Of a DNA stretch of 64,000 bases, positions 3,471 through 13,896 are shown one piece after another; the stretch's first letter is position 1; the number at the start of each line of letters is the position of its first letter. A program made the position numbers and the translations under genes. Under the pieces are notes generated by a model. That model did not search any database. It was not told the DNA's origin and saw only the letters and a program-made list of their open reading frames with translations. The stretch is from a virus. The stretch spans positions 12,906 through 76,905 of the IMG/VR virus record IMGVR_UViG_3300009550_000010; one strand, 5' to 3'.

Positions 3471-3700
3471 AATTCAATGTATTTGTCGATGTATGCTTTT
3501 ACTTTCTTGAGGTCTTGAACTTTATCATCCTTGTGACCTGCACGACAAATATACTTTACTATATTACCAGCAAAAAAATCTAATTTTTGATCTGCTATAA
3601 AATCCCAGACCTGTATCTTACCACGTTGGTAATGTGCAGGGTCTTCTGGTGTAAAATGTGAAGTTAGTGGTGCACCACTACGAAGATCTTCTACGTTCAT
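3461..3700 (-). CDS. DUF3310-like phage protein
   Basis: PAHY..G.IQVWDFI...F..GNIVKYICRAGHKD...DLKK pattern; start set at 3700 by TAATG coupling. Confidence 0.7.
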   Translation of the reverse strand: MNVEDLRSGAPLTSHFTPEDPAHYQRGKIQVWDFIADQKLDFFAGNIVKYICRAGHKDDKVQDLKKVKAYIDKYIELCS

Positions 3701-4062
3701 TAGTAATGCCCCCATGCATGTTCCTCTACTCTATTATAATCATCTTCTAGTCTTACGATATCATCCTCTATACACTTACCTCTTTGTACTTCAATAATAG
3801 TAATACCTTTTTTACCACCTCTGATACGATGTCGTTGCTCAATTGGTATAAAGAATGTATCACCAACCTTACATGGTGTTTCAAGATTACCTTGTGTAAT
3901 CTCACCATCACCATTAACAACTACCCAGTCTTCAGTTCTATACCGATGAAACTGTAGTGAGATTCTCATGTCCTTTTCTACAAAGAGTTCTTTGACACAA
4001 TAATTGTCACCTCTTTGTAGGACTTTAAACCATCCCCATGGTCTGTACTCTTTTTCAATCAT
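3700..4062 (-). CDS. Cupin, mannose-6-phosphate isomerase type II C-terminal domain-like
   Basis: RPWGWFKVL, ISLQFHRYRTEDWVVV, HRI, IEVQRG..EDDIVRLEDDY. Confidence 0.88.
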   Translation of the reverse strand: MIEKEYRPWGWFKVLQRGDNYCVKELFVEKDMRISLQFHRYRTEDWVVVNGDGEITQGNLETPCKVGDTFFIPIEQRHRIRGGKKGITIIEVQRGKCIEDDIVRLEDDYNRVEEHAWGHY

Positions 4063-4745: not shown

Positions 4746-4774
4746 ATTATAGTAAGAATACCTAGCATTGTCAA
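4746..4774 (-). promoter_or_regulatory. Consensus sigma70-type promoter for talC
   Basis: Minus strand reads TTGACA-17 nt-TATAAT exactly. Confidence 0.88.
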
Positions 4775-4778
4775 CCAT

Positions 4779-4786
4779 ACTAAATA
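4779..4786 (+). promoter_or_regulatory. T4-type late promoter for the plus-strand operon
   Basis: ACTAAATA 25 nt upstream of ATG 4812. Confidence 0.7.
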
Positions 4787-4811
4787 AAGCTAAACGAATT
4801 AGGTAAATCTA

Positions 4812-5300
4812 ATGAAGAGAATACTCTTTGCATTTACTTTATTATCGATGAGTCTACCTGCAAGAGCAGATATCACTCACAAATTGTCAAGCAGTATTCA
4901 ATTACAAGTGAACGCTGCAGCGACACAGGTTGAGAGGATCGGATCCTCATTTTCCGTAACAGGAAACGGTGTTGATACCACTGATGGTACAACAGCAGGT
5001 ACAGTATCAGTTGGAACTATAACTTCAGGAGTTTATAGTCCTGGTACTATAGCAGCAACACAGGATGTACCTGGTGCAGCGTTCAGCTTCACTCAGTCAT
5101 ACACACAAGCCGACGCTGTTGCAACATCAGCACCAACTGTTGGAACTGTAGGAAACTTCAGTACACAAGTTTCGACTGCTGCTGGTACTAAAGACACACT
5201 CGCTGGAACTATAACCAGTGCAGGTGTTATGGCACTAACAGCTGGTGGAGCTGGTACTGTGGCGACTGGTCAGCATGTGACCGAACTCAGTATCCAATAG
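4812..5300 (+). CDS. Exported Thr/Ser/Gly-rich beta protein, function unknown
   Basis: Sec signal peptide MKRILFAFTLLSMSLPARA; low-charge beta-rich mature part. Confidence 0.8.
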   Translation: MKRILFAFTLLSMSLPARADITHKLSSSIQLQVNAAATQVERIGSSFSVTGNGVDTTDGTTAGTVSVGTITSGVYSPGTIAATQDVPGAAFSFTQSYTQADAVATSAPTVGTVGNFSTQVSTAAGTKDTLAGTITSAGVMALTAGGAGTVATGQHVTELSIQ

Positions 5301-5306
5301 AGAGTT

Positions 5307-5741
5307 ATGGTAAGAAGATTTCCATTCTTACTATTACTTTGTCTAGCATCACCTGCTAGTGCCGTTCCCGTGGTCCCTAATTTTACTCAAGGTACGATGA
5401 CCCAGACGACGGAAACGACTTCCACCGTGACAGAGACCATTAATTCGATGGACTACTCGACTGGTTGGACATATTCAGTAAGTGGTACAAATGTACAACA
5501 CGATGGCACGAGCATGACACCTGATACAGGTAGTGCTCAAACAAATACATTGAACGGAGTGACTTCATCATGGACAGGTCTAGATGTGACCAACAAACCC
5601 AATTGGACACAGACAAATGTGGGCGACCCCTTCCAATTTACGGAGCACTATGTAGCCCCAGGTCTTCAGACTCATACGATCATACAAAGAAACCAAACAA
5701 TACAATCCGTCACCACATCAACAAGTATCTTCTCCCAATAG
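5307..5741 (+). CDS. Exported Thr-rich beta protein, probable paralog of 4812..5300
   Basis: Signal peptide ending ASA; shares GxxF/YSVxGxxV and TQxxxGxxFxFTxxY motifs with the upstream ORF. Confidence 0.8.
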   Translation: MVRRFPFLLLLCLASPASAVPVVPNFTQGTMTQTTETTSTVTETINSMDYSTGWTYSVSGTNVQHDGTSMTPDTGSAQTNTLNGVTSSWTGLDVTNKPNWTQTNVGDPFQFTEHYVAPGLQTHTIIQRNQTIQSVTTSTSIFSQ

Positions 5742-6427
5742 TAGCAGCATTCACATGCTCTCCTGTTATGGCGACTGACGTTGGTGGTGTATCGGCAACA
5801 GCAAACCCTGTTGCCAACTCGTCTGGCTCCGTAACCAACCAGGCAATACAAGTTTTACAAGGTCCTTATATTACGAACACCTACGGAGGTGGTGTTCAAT
5901 GTCAAGGTCCTACCGCTAATTTTACCCCCTATGTCACAAGAACTGGAACTTGGCAAGATCCTACAGAGTTATGGTATAATGATCCCGTATATAATAACGC
6001 TGACAATAATGATGATAATATCCCTGACTCTCCTGGTGAGATCCTTTATTATATCCCGACTCGCACAGGGCAGAAGAGTAACCAAAACATAAATCTAGGA
6101 TTCTCTGCAACACTATCGTTTCCTCTAGACAGACAATTACAAAGACAGTGCAAAGAAGCAGCACAGGCAGTTATAAACAACGTAACACAACAGACAGCAA
6201 ATAAAAGATTAGACTTTGAGATAGCCCGTTTAAAAAATTGTGGAGAATTAATGAAGGCTGGAATTATGTTCCATCCAAAGTCACCTTATCATAAGGTATG
6301 TGCTGACGTAGTATTAGTAAACCCACCTGGTGTGGTGGGTCAGCACAAGCATGTAATACCAACAGGTGATGCTACTTCTTTGAATTCGATTTCGATTGGA
6401 TCTTCAAAGGTGGCAGACCCTTCTTAG
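5717..6427 (+). CDS. Exported protein, candidate outer-membrane channel subunit (start uncertain: ATC 5717, ATG 5570 or ATG 5768)
   Basis: Signal-like (M)NKYLLPIVAAFTCSPVMA; amphipathic strand LGFSATLSFPLD followed by helices; four Cys in mature part. Confidence 0.75.
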   Translation: MNKYLLPIVAAFTCSPVMATDVGGVSATANPVANSSGSVTNQAIQVLQGPYITNTYGGGVQCQGPTANFTPYVTRTGTWQDPTELWYNDPVYNNADNNDDNIPDSPGEILYYIPTRTGQKSNQNINLGFSATLSFPLDRQLQRQCKEAAQAVINNVTQQTANKRLDFEIARLKNCGELMKAGIMFHPKSPYHKVCADVVLVNPPGVVGQHKHVIPTGDATSLNSISIGSSKVADPS

Positions 6428-7142
6428 CACGATAAGAATTAGCACGTATCTCACTCTTAGACAATCCACGATGAGTACCCAATTTCTTTTGGACGGTAGC
6501 GATAGCTTTCTTTACAGCAGGTTTAATTAATCGTATCAAGAGTGGTGTCGCTGCAGCACCTGCTGTTGCTATAATAGCTATCGCTGCTGTAGTGCTGGTT
6601 TGATTTAGTGATGGTAAAAATTTTTCAATTGTTGTAGTATCCTCGTATAATGTCACACAGGTTTTACCTCTCAGTTCGTGACCTATAACTCTCTCATCAC
6701 CTGACTGTGTAAGGTCACCAACTCTAAGTTGACCTGCACCTGGACACTCAGTTTCTGTGGGTATGTCACCCGTATCAGGTAGTGCTGGTGGATCTATTTC
6801 AGGTGGTGGTTCAACAACAGGTGGTGGTATCTCTCTTTCTATTATAAGTTGGTCTGGTACGTAGTCCATCGCATTATAACCAGCCATGCCAGGTTCATCA
6901 CAGTAAGTTACTACATCATCATCCTCTGCTAAACTTTTATTCTTAGTGCCACCTGCACCTGTATTATTATTTGGATTCGCCTCGACACAACCTGGTATCT
7001 CAACGATAGGTTTACCTATGTAAGTAGTTACAGGCACATAAGGAACTTCTGGATGCATGATAGTAACATCAGCACCCCATATATTTGGTATGCTTACCTC
7101 TTTGACTCCCGACTTAGGAATTACTATCTGTGGAATCGACAT
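6372..7142 (-). CDS. Pro-rich protein with C-terminal TM helix and basic tail
   Basis: PPPVVEPPPEIDPP linker, four Cys, hydrophobic AAIAIIATAGAAATPLLI then Lys/Arg-rich end. Confidence 0.75.
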   Translation of the reverse strand: MSIPQIVIPKSGVKEVSIPNIWGADVTIMHPEVPYVPVTTYIGKPIVEIPGCVEANPNNNTGAGGTKNKSLAEDDDVVTYCDEPGMAGYNAMDYVPDQLIIEREIPPPVVEPPPEIDPPALPDTGDIPTETECPGAGQLRVGDLTQSGDERVIGHELRGKTCVTLYEDTTTIEKFLPSLNQTSTTAAIAIIATAGAAATPLLIRLIKPAVKKAIATVQKKLGTHRGLSKSEIRANSYRAKKGLPPLKIQSKSNSKK

Positions 7143-7359
7143 CTTTCACCTTAAATACTAAAAGTTCCTCACCATTTTTTACATCTTTCATCTCTGGATG
7201 TACGTTTCTATACGCTTTCATAGCATCACCATATGATTTCACGGGTCTCCTATCCATATCAGATAAAACTGATCCCATAAGTTTCCACATGAATGCAAAG
7301 GTTGCACCACATATAGACACAAAAAATACTAGGTAAACAAATACTGTTACGTCGTTCAT
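7114..7359 (-). CDS. Small membrane protein
   Basis: N-terminal TM VTVFVYLVFFVSICGATFAFMW; overlaps neighbours. Confidence 0.65.
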   Translation of the reverse strand: MNDVTVFVYLVFFVSICGATFAFMWKLMGSVLSDMDRRPVKSYGDAMKAYRNVHPEMKDVKNGEELLVFKVKDVDSTDSNS

Positions 7360-7799
7360 ATTCCTCTTATATCTCTAAGTTCTTGGAAGTCTTTTTTCTT
7401 AGTACCACCATCATACTCCCATGCATATCCCTCAGTAATCATCTTTTCGTTGAGAGATATGTCAGAAGAACCAACATATAACCAACCAAGAAGCCTCCCG
7501 TATTTACCCACACCACCTTTGAGTTCGGTTCTGATAGTAAGTTCATCATCGCCTTTGATTGCTCCTTCTAAATGTTCTTTCATCCATGCTGTAGCATCAA
7601 GTCCTAATGCCTTCTCTTCTAAATCTCTTGTCCTTTTCTCAGGAGTATCTACACCAGCGATCCGAACTCTTTCTTTTTTCATAAGATCAAAACCAAGGTC
7701 TATGGTAACATCAATTGTGTCACCGTCCACCACCCTATTGATCTTTACAACTCTAAAATTATAACAACTCTTTCGACTCGGTGGGTGCATCTTCGCCAT
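7356..7799 (-). CDS. Staphylococcal nuclease (thermonuclease)-like endonuclease
   Basis: RVVDGDTID, RVRIAGVDTPE, GKYGRLLG, NEKMITEGYAWEYDGG. Confidence 0.9.
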   Translation of the reverse strand: MAKMHPPSRKSCYNFRVVKINRVVDGDTIDVTIDLGFDLMKKERVRIAGVDTPEKRTRDLEEKALGLDATAWMKEHLEGAIKGDDELTIRTELKGGVGKYGRLLGWLYVGSSDISLNEKMITEGYAWEYDGGTKKKDFQELRDIRGI

Positions 7800-8127: not shown

Positions 8128-8733
8128 CTAACAGTTCTTATTCAGATCCTCTGCCATACCACCACCTATATCAGAGCCCTTATCACCACCGAACATTGCC
8201 ACCCAACCAGCAGCAACCCAACCAATAAAGGGAATGCCACTAAGAGTAGGAGCAGCACTAGCACCAATCGATGTACCCACCAAACGTCCTGTTCCTTTTG
8301 CACTTCCGATTGCTTCGATACACGCTTCACTTTTTCGTGCAGCAGTTATTTCCTCCGCTTGTTGTTGAGTCAAACCAGGCTGTTGATCAATCCAAGACCT
8401 ATGATTAGAAACGGGACCACCCTGATTAATCTGACCATCCATAAAGTATTCTTCTACTACCTTAGTAGTATTATTTGCTAGTCCTAAGAAACCACCCTTC
8501 TCTTTGATATCCTTAGTGATGTATGCTGTCTTAGGATCGTTTGCACTATATGAAATAACATAACTATCGTCTGTTACACTTGCCTTATATGATGTGTAAG
8601 GACCTACAGGTATGTTCAAACTAGGTAACTTAGGTTCATCTTTTTTACTTGCAATATAACCTATCATACCAAGATGTGAGACAGCAAAAAGACTACCCAC
8701 CACACCAATTGATATCCACTTTATATTATTCAT
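8128..8733 (-). CDS. Membrane protein with N-terminal anchor and C-terminal glycine zipper
   Basis: TM WISIGVVGSLFAVSHLGMIGYI; GxxxG repeats GRLVGTSIGASAAP..GSDIGGG. Confidence 0.75.
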   Translation of the reverse strand: MNNIKWISIGVVGSLFAVSHLGMIGYIASKKDEPKLPSLNIPVGPYTSYKASVTDDSYVISYSANDPKTAYITKDIKEKGGFLGLANNTTKVVEEYFMDGQINQGGPVSNHRSWIDQQPGLTQQQAEEITAARKSEACIEAIGSAKGTGRLVGTSIGASAAPTLSGIPFIGWVAAGWVAMFGGDKGSDIGGGMAEDLNKNC

Positions 8734-9128
8734 TTCGAGTCAGGGGTAATTTTTATGGGTGCTTGTTCGATTCTTATTGTCTGTGCTGGTGCTGTCTGTG
8801 ATGCCTTCTCTATAAGAATCTCCATATCTTTCTTACTTATGTTACCACTCGCTGCATTACCATTCTTCTTGTTAGAACCTGCTTGGACACCGAACGTAGC
8901 TAGTACCCCAGTAAAGACCGAAGCTATGAAGGTCGGATCTATTTTCTGTTCCTGTTTGTAACCAGGTATTTCAACATAATTAAGAGTCAATATACTGCCC
9001 GCCCAGATCATTACACCAAGACGAACAAATGTACTTAGTATAACTAACTGTTCCTCCTTATCCTCTGCTGCTTCCTTTATCTTACCAACAATACCTTTCT
9101 TAGGTTCTTTCTTTGCTGAGTCTGTCAT
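8730..9128 (-). CDS. Two-TM membrane protein
   Basis: Hydrophobic segments LSTFVRLGVMIWAGSILTL and FIASVFTGVLATFGV. Confidence 0.75.
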   Translation of the reverse strand: MTDSAKKEPKKGIVGKIKEAAEDKEEQLVILSTFVRLGVMIWAGSILTLNYVEIPGYKQEQKIDPTFIASVFTGVLATFGVQAGSNKKNGNAASGNISKKDMEILIEKASQTAPAQTIRIEQAPIKITPDSK

Positions 9129-11621: not shown

Positions 11622-13896
11622 AGGTTTCTTCTTCTTCGTTTGTTATTTGGGACAGTATATCGGATAATGGAGGTGCTTCATCAACGTCATCTGACTTCAT
11701 GTCATGAGTATTTTGATAATAAGATGTCTTCCAACCATACTTGTATGTTGTTAGGAAGTCTTGTGCCATTACAGACACAGGCACCTCATTATCAGGAAAA
11801 TGTTCTGGATTATAAGACCAGTTACCAGATATACCTTGATCAAAGAACTTCTGCATCACAGATACAATATTAATGTATCCACGATTACTCTTCATATCCC
11901 ACAGTAAAGTATATTTATTTTTTAAAGAATTGTAACTAGGAACAATTTGCTTGAGAGGACCTTTCTTAGACTTTTTGATGGATAAAAACCCTCTTGGTGG
12001 TTCAATTCCATTAGTTGCATTACATACAACTGAAGAAGATTCTGATGGCATCTGAGAAGAAAGAGTGCTGTGTCTTAGTCCAAACTCCTTGATATCATTG
12101 CGAAGTGTTTGCCAATCATGAATTAAAGGTTCTGATGTTATCTCATTTACATCTGTCTTGAAGGTATCAATTGGTAGAATTCCCTGAGAATACTTTGTTC
12201 TGTGGAAGTAATCACACTTACCTTTCTCCTTTGCTATCTGATTAGATGATTTGAGGAGATAGTATTGGAAAGATTCTGTAAGTCCATGTACAGCATCCCA
12301 TGCCTCCTGTGAGTCGTAATTATATCCTAACTTGGCAAGGTAATGGGCGAGACCAATGTACCCTATTCCAAGCGATCTACGTGCCTTTGTAGAGATCTCT
12401 GCAGCAGAGACTGGATACTCTTGATAATCAATAAGTTCTTCCAATCCACGGACTGCTAGATCACATAAGTCTTCTAGTTCCTTGTCCGACTGAATCTTAC
12501 CAACATTGATAGCAGATAGTATACACAATGCTATCTCACCACCCTTATCATCTATGTGATTTAATGGCACTGTAGGTAAGGTAATTTCCTGACAGAGGTT
12601 ACTCATGTTCACCTTGTCTAGGAATGAACTGTGACTGTTGCAGTGGTCTATATTCATGATATAGATACGACCTGTCTCTGCTCTCTCCTTGAGTAGGTTT
12701 AGTATGAGTTCTTGAGCAGCAATTGTTTTTCTAGGAATTGTTGTGTCTGCCTCGTACGCTGTATAGAGTCTATCGAACTCTTCGGTTCCAAAGACATCAT
12801 AAAGATTAGGAACATCGTGAGGAGAGAACAGACTGATATCACTACTGGTAATGAATCTTTCATAAAATAATTTACTAATTTGAATACTATAGTCAAGTTT
12901 ACGAACACGATTATCTTCTGTGCCTTTATTGTTCTTTAGAACAAGTATATCTTCTATTTCTTGGTGCCAGATTGGAAAGTGGACAGTTGCTGATCCACCT
13001 CTGATGCCATTTTGTGTGCAGCATCTGACAGTAGCTTCAAACTTTTTAAGGAAAGGGACGACACCTGTGTGTTGAACTTCACCGCCCCTGATTTTACTGT
13101 TGATGCCACGGATTCTACCTGCATTGATGCCAATACCTGCCCTTTGTGCAACATAACGACCAATGGCCATATCAGAACTAAAAATACTATCCAAGGTGTC
13201 GTCAGCATCAACCAGAACGCAAGACGCAAACTGCCGAATAGGTGTTCTGACACCTCCCATGATTGGGGTTGGTATGTTGAGTTTGTGTTTGGAAATGGCA
13301 TCATAGTATCTCTTTACATAATTTAGTCTAGTTTCTTTATCGTACTCAGCAAATATTGTCATACTTATCAACATGTACATTTGCTGTGGTGTTTCATATA
13401 CTTGACCAGTGCTTCTGTCTTGTACAAGATACTTGTCTGCAACTTGCCTTAGACCTGCATATGTAAATATATAATCTCTGCTGTGATCAATGACTCCCTG
13501 TAGTCTATTGATTTCTTCTTCAGTATACTTATCAAATATACTAGAATCATAAACCCCATCATCAACACATTTGTGTATGTGGTCAGAAAGGTGAGGAATG
13601 TCTTCTATAACACCATATAAACTCTTCCTAATAGAGAACAAAAGGAGTCTAGCAGCGACAAACTGGTAGTTTGGGGCATCCAAATCTATAAGATCATTTG
13701 CAGACTTAATAAGTATCTCCTGTATCTCTGCAGTAGAAATACCATCATAGAATTGTATACCTGATTGTATCTCTACCTGACTTGCAGAGACCCCTGCAAG
13801 ACCATCACATGCTTTATCCATCATCACATGCATCTTTTCAAGATCTAAAGGTTCAATAGTTCCCTTTCTCTTTTTTACGGTGATGCCATTACTCAT
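11602..13896 (-). CDS. nrdA: Ribonucleotide reductase class Ia alpha subunit
   Basis: ATP cone, PTPIMGG, QFASCVL, SNLCQE, C-terminal CESCAI; start at ATG 13896 coupled to primase stop. Confidence 0.97.
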   Translation of the reverse strand: MSNGITVKKRKGTIEPLDLEKMHVMMDKACDGLAGVSASQVEIQSGIQFYDGISTAEIQEILIKSANDLIDLDAPNYQFVAARLLLFSIRKSLYGVIEDIPHLSDHIHKCVDDGVYDSSIFDKYTEEEINRLQGVIDHSRDYIFTYAGLRQVADKYLVQDRSTGQVYETPQQMYMLISMTIFAEYDKETRLNYVKRYYDAISKHKLNIPTPIMGGVRTPIRQFASCVLVDADDTLDSIFSSDMAIGRYVAQRAGIGINAGRIRGINSKIRGGEVQHTGVVPFLKKFEATVRCCTQNGIRGGSATVHFPIWHQEIEDILVLKNNKGTEDNRVRKLDYSIQISKLFYERFITSSDISLFSPHDVPNLYDVFGTEEFDRLYTAYEADTTIPRKTIAAQELILNLLKERAETGRIYIMNIDHCNSHSSFLDKVNMSNLCQEITLPTVPLNHIDDKGGEIALCILSAINVGKIQSDKELEDLCDLAVRGLEELIDYQEYPVSAAEISTKARRSLGIGYIGLAHYLAKLGYNYDSQEAWDAVHGLTESFQYYLLKSSNQIAKEKGKCDYFHRTKYSQGILPIDTFKTDVNEITSEPLIHDWQTLRNDIKEFGLRHSTLSSQMPSESSSVVCNATNGIEPPRGFLSIKKSKKGPLKQIVPSYNSLKNKYTLLWDMKSNRGYINIVSVMQKFFDQGISGNWSYNPEHFPDNEVPVSVMAQDFLTTYKYGWKTSYYQNTHDMKSDDVDEAPPLSDILSQITNEEEETCESCAI

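Follow-up and report, generated by a model that had tools for sequence, protein, structure and literature searches.

Predicted exported proteins of marine cyanophages belong to a five-gene cell-envelope cassette with a possible role in lysis

Introduction

What are three adjoining genes, all of which appear to encode exported proteins, doing on the sparsely used plus strand of a cyanophage genome? This question is raised by ORF1, ORF2 and ORF3, which lie within a 64,000-nucleotide stretch of the IMG/VR virus record IMGVR_UViG_3300009550_000010 (positions 12,906 to 76,905 of that record; hereafter the window, with positions counted from its first letter). A sequence-only reading of this locus had proposed that the trio forms a minimal fibre or pore on the infected host surface, with ORF1 and ORF2 as paralogous subunits and ORF3 as a channel, and had listed a lysis-related role among its options. 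In the analysis presented here, the trio is the exported part of a five-gene cell-envelope cassette, together with a DUF6450 gene and a gene designated GC234, and is not self-contained. The reading that we favour, tentatively, is that this cassette acts in late breaching of the host envelope and helps lysis, in line with the lysis-related option.

Few marine viruses are as abundant as the cyanophages that infect Prochlorococcus and Synechococcus, and when carbon and nutrients are released depends on how these phages lyse their hosts. To our knowledge, there is no established lysis gene in these cyanophages.

Results

Three plus-strand genes and two convergent partners

The window belongs to a T4-like cyanomyovirus. 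It contains about 84 open reading frames (ORFs) on the minus strand and a handful on the plus strand, talC and gp-type genes are present, and hli-type genes are neighbours in relatives of this phage. In a PHROG search, phage-family matches on the plus strand were confined to ORF1, ORF2 and ORF3 (phrog_564, phrog_650 and phrog_848, with E values spanning 1e-56 to 1e-123), and the remaining plus-strand ORFs of at least 70 amino acids gave zero matches. As only the trio has PHROG matches on this strand, the earlier description of it as the only plus-strand operon stands. The three ORFs lie where that reading had placed them. The features of the locus are as follows.

4780-4786, plus strand: late-promoter-like motif CTAAATA, within the 33-nt gap from talC (minus strand) to ORF1
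4812-5300, plus strand: ORF1, 162 amino acids, T4-GC 237, phrog_564 (E 1.1e-60), divergent DUF6322 paralogue by profile comparison
5307-5741, plus strand: ORF2, 144 amino acids, T4-GC 236, phrog_650, PF19847 (E 2.5e-37)
5570-6427, plus strand: ORF3, 285 amino acids, T4-GC 235, phrog_848 (E 8e-123)
5570-5741, plus strand: overlap of ORF2 and ORF3, 172 nt, with ORF3 in the -1 frame
6372-7142, minus strand: GC234 gene (T4-GC 234, phrog_570), 256 amino acids, proline-rich, with a C-terminal hydrophobic segment and a basic tail
8730-9128, minus strand: DUF6450 gene, 132 amino acids, two transmembrane (TM) segments, PF20048 (E 2e-33)

The GC234 gene converges on ORF3, with a 56-nt overlap between them, and the DUF6450 gene is the head of the convergent minus-strand operon. 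DUF6450 proteins are 88-132 amino acids long, with two hydrophobic segments and charged ends, and would be holin-like in size and topology; holin family hidden Markov models (HMMs) did not match the DUF6450 protein. With this two-TM protein and the proline-rich, anchored GC234 protein as partners, the trio is part of a larger cassette and not the minimal system that had been suggested.

The cassette is shared by three phage architectures

In all of the roughly 80 IMG/VR loci whose flanks are long enough, and in 350-440 phage records, the three genes occur together, which is the strict co-occurrence that the earlier reading had anticipated. GC234 adjoins ORF3 in 80 of 80 loci, convergently in 75 and co-directionally in the other 5 (L002, L053, L066, L067 and L078), where a local inversion has kept the linkage. 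Relatives of ORF3 were found in 438 phage records, all of cyanophages or marine viruses, with 406 representative clusters. The gene order is DUF6450, ORF1, ORF2, ORF3 and a convergent GC234 both in MED4-117 and in the divergent lineage L087/L089, and it is DUF6450, a single DUF6322 gene and ORF3 in the T7-like phages P-SSP7 and P-SSP10. In P-SSP7, a short GC234-like protein, recognised by a weak match (HMM E 0.008) and by eye, is encoded ahead of DUF6450. The cassette is common to three unrelated phage architectures that share one host group.

Every cellular-genome match to the family resembles a phage contig within a single amplified genome, a metagenome-assembled genome or a draft assembly, and a search of 400 further cyanobacterial genomes from across the phylum turned up no DUF6322. 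The cassette was found only in phages of marine picocyanobacteria. It is also present on a 188-kb contig (L099, NZ_RMVE01000006.1) of an isolate assembly labelled Nonlabens xiamenensis; this contig resembles a cyanophage genome, apparently present in the flavobacterial assembly through contamination or a mislabel.

These genes were previously grouped by Sullivan et al. 2010 (PMC3037559), who described T4-GCs 218, 219, 234, 235 and 237 as a “mobile hypothetical genes cluster” found in 15 of 16 cyanomyoviruses. The genes are the same, with ORF1 corresponding to GC237, ORF2 to GC236, ORF3 to GC235 and the convergent gene to GC234. That study gives them as hypothetical genes, without the export signals, the paralogy, the overlap, the podovirus and MED4-117 counterparts, the link to DUF6450 or a function. 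The earlier reading knew of no described function for the trio, and in agreement with this, no functional study of DUF6322, DUF6450 or a cyanophage holin or spanin was found in the literature.

In the divergent lineage represented by L087, two minus-strand genes (L087:640-1344 and L087:4808-5170) flank the cassette and encode a papain-like peptidase (Peptidase_C39_2, E 1.9e-6) and a member of PF24653, “Cyanophage outer membrane protein like beta barrel”. A cell-wall enzyme partner is one possibility for the peptidase.

Export leaders on ORF1, ORF2 and ORF3

Leader statistics were taken from alignments of 57 (ORF1), 71 (ORF2) and 74 (ORF3) distinct homologues. Alanine is found at position -1 of the conserved mature N-terminus in 54 of 57, 66 of 71 and 73 of 74 homologues, most homologues of all three families have a small or aliphatic residue (A, V, S or T) at position -3, and each leader has a hydrophobic core (best 9-residue hydropathy mean 2.3-2.8). 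By these sequence features, all three proteins have the basic n-region, h-region and -3/-1 pattern of a Sec type I signal peptide. The ORF1 leader has 19 residues and ends ..PARA|DITH, with DITHK as the conserved mature start, and the ORF2 leader, also of 19 residues, ends ..SPASA| ahead of a nearly invariant mature start, VPVVPNFTQG. The ORF3 leader is atypical, with 68 residues that comprise a basic, poorly conserved extension followed by the h-region and VMA|TD; DVGGVSA is the conserved mature N-terminus of the family. There is no conserved lipobox in the homologue alignments of ORF1, ORF2 or ORF3, and the conserved site of ORF3 is AxA. ORF1 to ORF3 look exported via Sec-type leaders that end in AxA, with predicted cleavage, as had been proposed, and four conserved cysteines in mature ORF3 fit an oxidising periplasm.

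A cysteine is present among the last 22 leader residues in 39 of 74 ORF3 homologues versus 1 of 57 for ORF1, a frequency that is unusual for a type I signal peptide. Because of these cysteines and the weak h-region of ORF3, a signal-anchor-release (SAR) endolysin was considered for this protein; the candidate was rejected, as the structure model is not enzyme-like and an HxH motif is not kept in distant members.

ORF1 and ORF2 are divergent members of DUF6322

ORF2 matches the DUF6322 (PF19847) HMM at 127.9 bits (E 2.5e-37; gathering score 30.6 bits), and ORF1 alone scores 14.3 bits (E 0.059), below the gathering score. BLASTP gave no match between ORF1 and ORF2. When profiles built from the loci were compared by hhalign, ORF1 residues 43-98 were paired with ORF2 residues 52-116 at 93% probability (E 2.5e-7), and this alignment joins exactly both of the motif pairs that the sequence-only reading had named as shared. 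In addition, PF19847 is present on all listed ORF1 homologues in precomputed tables and on Atlas clusters. By profile comparison, ORF1 and ORF2 are paralogues in DUF6322. ORF1 has the composition of a Gly/Ala/Thr-rich beta protein, and the strands of both proteins are Thr-rich on both faces and not lipid-facing. Some GenBank records name ORF1 relatives “OMP1 protein”.

The ORF3 start codon is embedded in ORF2

The ORF3 leader reaches 68 residues because its start is internal to ORF2. The ATG at 5570 is made from the A that ends one ORF2 codon and the invariant tryptophan codon that follows, and the codon ahead of the tryptophan is ACA, TCA or CAA, and so ends in A, in 74 of 74 distinct homologues. 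In most relatives, no canonical start codon adjoins the signal-like segment of ORF3. In most loci, the equivalent of this ATG is the sole canonical start upstream of the ORF3 leader, 65-75 codons upstream of the methionine at 5768, which is two residues before the mature end. Wobble sites are near-frozen in the four ORF2 codons up to and including the donor of the A, fourfold-site entropy in ORF2 is 1.19 bits within the overlap versus 1.51 outside (Mann-Whitney p 0.0016), and T, which would make stops in the ORF3 frame, is depleted at ORF2 wobble positions in the overlap. Mean identity in the overlap is 69% in the ORF2 frame and 40% in the ORF3 frame, and the N-terminal extension of ORF3 is always strongly basic (mean net charge +8). 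The conservation of the ATG, the frozen synonymous sites, the low entropy and the depletion of T together argue that ATG 5570 is the selected start of ORF3.

The overlap of ORF2 and ORF3 measures 166-178 nt across 74 loci. P-SSP7 has the same overlapping layout, with a GTG start on another tryptophan codon, and the overlap is also present in MED4-117. In the divergent lineage L087/L089 and in locus L063, ORF3 starts at an ATG of its own, with an ordinary signal peptide. Since these loci supply their own start and a plain signal peptide, it is the exported mature domain of ORF3 that matters. In L063 (IMG/VR, L063:2753-4454), about 670 nt lie between ORF2 and ORF3, and the internal ATG within ORF2 is still kept.

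Two other starts were rejected. The position equivalent to ATC 5717 is conserved as no start-like codon, against the retention of ATG 5570 in every homologue, and ATG 5768, a frequent choice of gene callers (219-amino-acid forms), would remove the leader. A classical slippery heptamer was not seen by eye near the end of ORF2, and a programmed -1 frameshift is not needed to explain ORF3. The conserved start corrects inconsistent calls (about 219 versus about 285 amino acids) in thousands of metagenomic entries.

Expression timing

Late promotion of the operon had been proposed from the window, and the CTAAATA motif that precedes ORF1 there is recurrent, as TAAATA is found 28-34 nt ahead of the ORF1 ATG in 33 of 58 distinct relatives. 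No sigma-70-like site facing ORF1 was found. In RNA-seq of P-HM2 (PMC5082946, S2 Table), the ORF1 orthologue PHM2_197 is in the Late (E) cluster, alongside baseplate and head genes, the ORF2 orthologue clusters in Late (D)/Mid (C), and the GC234 orthologue PHM2_194 clusters in Late (D). Transcription of the cassette orthologues is mid to late. Metatranscriptome contigs from three studies span the trio; they were not used as proof of expression because strand, ends and level are not readable from them and they may include carried-over DNA.

A perfect sigma-70 consensus (TTGACA, 17 nt, TATAAT) is present on the minus strand at 4746-4774, in the first codons of talC, and is directed downstream along that gene.

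Structure models and fold searches

Mature ORF3 has 217 amino acids and contains an Asp-rich loop of variable length, a PLD motif and an approximately 40-residue helix. In its AF2 model (predicted local distance difference test score, pLDDT, 72.8), a beta hairpin (53-73/90-111) carries the Asp-rich variable loop and is followed by the PLD motif, a helix (120-161) and a variable tail; the Asp/Asn loop and a strand-xPL-helix transition had both been pointed out before. The first 30 residues of the mature protein are disordered in the model, yet highly conserved. ORF3 has the four cysteines noted in the earlier reading, and these are invariant or nearly so (C43, C126, C156 and C176 in mature numbering). 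Only C126 and C156 are in the long helix; C43 is in the beta part and C176 in a later short helix. The AF2 model of ORF2, likewise of moderate confidence (pLDDT 72.3), has 23-residue strands at both ends that flank a small beta core.

Fold searches with the ORF2 and ORF3 models yielded no significant match. For ORF3, this applies to Foldseek against the PDB and to the VIA wide search, in which a single helix alone was aligned (Z no higher than 5.0), and AFDB clusters and BFVD returned uncharacterised family members only. For ORF2, nothing significant was returned by the VIA wide search (best Z 4.2) or by Foldseek against the PDB, and a DUF4402 protein among the AFDB clusters (E 1.2e-3, TM 0.35) was not counted as significant. 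Sequence-profile searches of the PDB gave no meaningful match. The weak top rows for both models are pore-state beta-barrel pore-forming toxins and podovirus tail tubes, which are other long-hairpin proteins that exist only as oligomers, and these model-based rows are taken as a hint only.

Discussion

A possible role in late envelope breaching

What could such a cassette do for phages that differ in architecture and share one host group? We favour a role in breaching the envelope late in infection, while rating its chance at somewhat below even. Late in infection, the exported proteins would assemble, either in the periplasm or at the outer membrane, and, together with the DUF6450 protein, would help to breach the host envelope at lysis, with the cassette as a substitute for holin and spanin genes, which are missing from these phages. 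As a conjecture, the long beta hairpins of ORF2 and ORF3 could build an oligomeric beta structure able to damage the outer membrane from its inner side. A more specific proposal, which we regard as rather unlikely, is that the cassette is a third kind of outer-membrane-breaching machinery besides spanins and disruptins. Here the Sec-exported beta-hairpin proteins (DUF6322 and the ORF3 family) would stay in the periplasm until a DUF6450 holin triggered their assembly into an oligomer, which would open the picocyanobacterial outer membrane from within, and the proline-rich GC234 protein would be the link to the inner membrane.

Several circumstantial lines of evidence point to envelope breaching. 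In P-SSP7 and P-SSP10, the tail-fibre genes lie on one side of the cassette and the small terminase gene on the other, and in T7 the same genome position holds 17.5 (holin), followed by 18.5/18.7 (spanins). According to Sullivan et al. 2005 (PMC1079782), P-SSP7 is without 3.5, 17.5 and 18.5, which may be replaced by ORFs at the homologous positions. Searches of the complete genomes of P-HM2, P-SSP7, P-RSM4 and MED4-213 and of the record that contains the window gave no match to the Pfam models for T4 holin and Rz (Phage_lysis), and in those five records the Phage_lysozyme model matched only inside one 935-amino-acid open frame of P-RSM4. The mid-to-late timing, the late-type motif ahead of ORF1, the small two-TM DUF6450 protein with its charged ends, the leaders and cysteines of the exported proteins and the phage-only distribution also count in favour of this reading. 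A host-envelope rather than a virion-type function would explain why the cassette is shared across phage families. In addition, T4-GCs 235 and 236 do not appear in the supplement with the virion-proteome table of Sullivan et al. 2010 (PMC3037559), a search that was uninformative for 234 and 237.

The likeness to known lysis genes extends beyond position. Like the cassette, T7 17.5 with 18.5/18.7 and lambda Rz/Rz1 are late and envelope-directed, and they include a small two-TM protein and two genes that overlap in different frames; the T7 genes occupy the genome position of the cassette in T7-like cyanophages, and recognisable spanins are missing from the host-range group. Overlapping genes are frequent in spanin pairs, and this arrangement is also found in ORF2/ORF3, including those of P-SSP7 and MED4-117, although it is not diagnostic alone. 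The differences are considerable. There is no sequence or fold similarity between the T7 or lambda spanins and the cassette, and spanins comprise a type II membrane protein and a lipoprotein, whereas the overlapped pair here is predicted to be two Sec-cleaved soluble proteins. An inner-membrane spanin subunit has an N-terminal TM anchor and a periplasmic coiled coil; mature ORF3 has a single helix of some 40 residues, and its leader places the hydrophobic segment ahead of the conserved AxA site. The lipobox cysteine of an outer-membrane subunit is conserved in none of ORF1, ORF2 and ORF3. The cassette also has a second DUF6322 protein and GC234, which are beyond the spanin set. A second comparison is with pore-state beta-barrel toxins (lysenin, anthrax PA, iota Ib and aerolysin), which have, like both models, 20-residue hairpins that are sensible only in an oligomer. 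The rows for these toxins are not significant (VIA Z no higher than 4.2, Foldseek E at least 0.18), and unlike the toxins, the cassette proteins are without cap or receptor domains and their strands are not clearly amphipathic.

Other points weigh against a lysis role. The absence of Pfam holin and spanin matches is weak evidence, since these models catch few of such very diverse proteins, and the positional argument from T7-like genomes is an analogy only. There is no recognisable muralytic enzyme in the cassette, and with no conserved lipobox in ORF3 and an ORF2 that is not a type II membrane protein, the pair is not a canonical spanin pair. The ORF3 orthologue of P-HM2 clusters in Mid (C) and not late (PMC5082946), and S-PM2 lyses its host although the cluster is missing from it (Sullivan et al. 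2010, PMC3037559). The pore-forming-toxin fold matches are far from significance (Z no higher than 4.2, Foldseek E above 0.02), and the lysis role and envelope localisation of all members of the cassette are predictions.

Kept by T4-like, T7-like and MED4-117-type phages, the cassette is an obvious place to look for lysis genes, and a lysis role is testable with existing cyanophage genetics.

Alternative functions

Superinfection exclusion or receptor masking, in which the cassette would change the infected cell at its periplasm or outer membrane so that further phages fail to adsorb or inject, is an improbable alternative. In T4, superinfection is blocked by Imm, a small two-TM protein, with Sp as a periplasm-facing partner, and the composition of the cassette parallels this pair. 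All parts of the cassette are predicted to be envelope-targeted, and the length of the Asp-rich loop in ORF3 is variable, a common trait of loops at surfaces or in interactions. However, expression is mid to late, with a late-type motif, and not early, and one and the same cassette is carried by myoviruses, podoviruses and MED4-117-type phages that differ in injection. Exclusion genes are usually lineage-specific, whereas the cassette families are among the most conserved non-structural genes.

The fibre with a channel put forward by the sequence-only reading, with ORF1 and ORF2 as major and minor subunits and ORF3 as an oligomeric outer-membrane exporter or anchor, is less probable still, and we consider it quite unlikely. 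The two paralogous exported beta-rich subunits with a third exported protein, the long terminal strands in the models and weak, non-significant ORF2 rows for pilus subunits, Ena fibres and the DUF4402 protein all agree with it, and the likeness to TolC/OprM and to curli CsgA/CsgB/CsgG is real insofar as these systems also have exported beta-rich proteins, two related small subunits and a larger protein of strands and a helix. The matches that would identify such a system are absent. The OEP (PF02321) HMM did not match ORF3 at E up to 1, and a TolC-like chain, which had been suggested by the strand-xPL-helix transition, is not found among the Foldseek, VIA and AFDB rows for the ORF3 model, where only a single helix aligns. 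Each ORF3 chain has a single hairpin and a single long helix, with a disordered and variable C-terminal tail that is without a C-terminal aromatic beta-signal. The curlin HMM did not match ORF1 or ORF2, CsgG gave no match, and there is no chaperone, usher, Ig-like pilin, lipoprotein channel or other TolC or curli accessory factor among the cassette genes (the FimG rows for ORF2 have E above 2). Podoviruses have a single DUF6322 gene, so that a major and minor pair is not required, and a fibre leaves the DUF6450 and GC234 partners unexplained. Predicted export, paralogy and co-occurrence, as set out in the sequence-only reading, have held; the fibre and channel built on them found no support.

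It is very unlikely that the cassette is an auxiliary uptake module whose periplasmic or outer-membrane proteins would raise nutrient entry, as phage PstS or porin-like genes may do. Cyanophages do encode exported auxiliary proteins, pstS adjoins the cassette in P-RSM4, and both the OMP-like barrel family near the cassette in L087 and the “OMP1” label on ORF1 in some records would agree with such a module. The 400 cyanobacterial genomes, however, offered no cellular homologues as a gene source, the cassette is present in small T7-like genomes with very few auxiliary genes, late timing is ill-suited to metabolic support, and the strands are not lipid-facing.

That these are virion-associated or assembly proteins that merely appear exported is the least probable reading and is hardly to be credited, as three families keep their predicted cleavable Sec leaders, the partner genes encode membrane proteins and T4-GCs 235 and 236 are missing from the virion-proteome supplement, despite the co-expression of the ORF1 orthologue with structural genes (Late E) and the position of the P-SSP7 cassette directly after the tail-fibre genes.

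Neighbouring genes in the window

A staphylococcal-nuclease-like gene (PF00565, E 5.9e-13) is found on the minus strand at 7356-7799, between DUF6450 and GC234 in the convergent operon. Downstream of talC, the minus strand at 3700-4062 encodes a 120-amino-acid protein with a weak match to phrog_7851 (cysteine dioxygenase annotation; E 5e-9).

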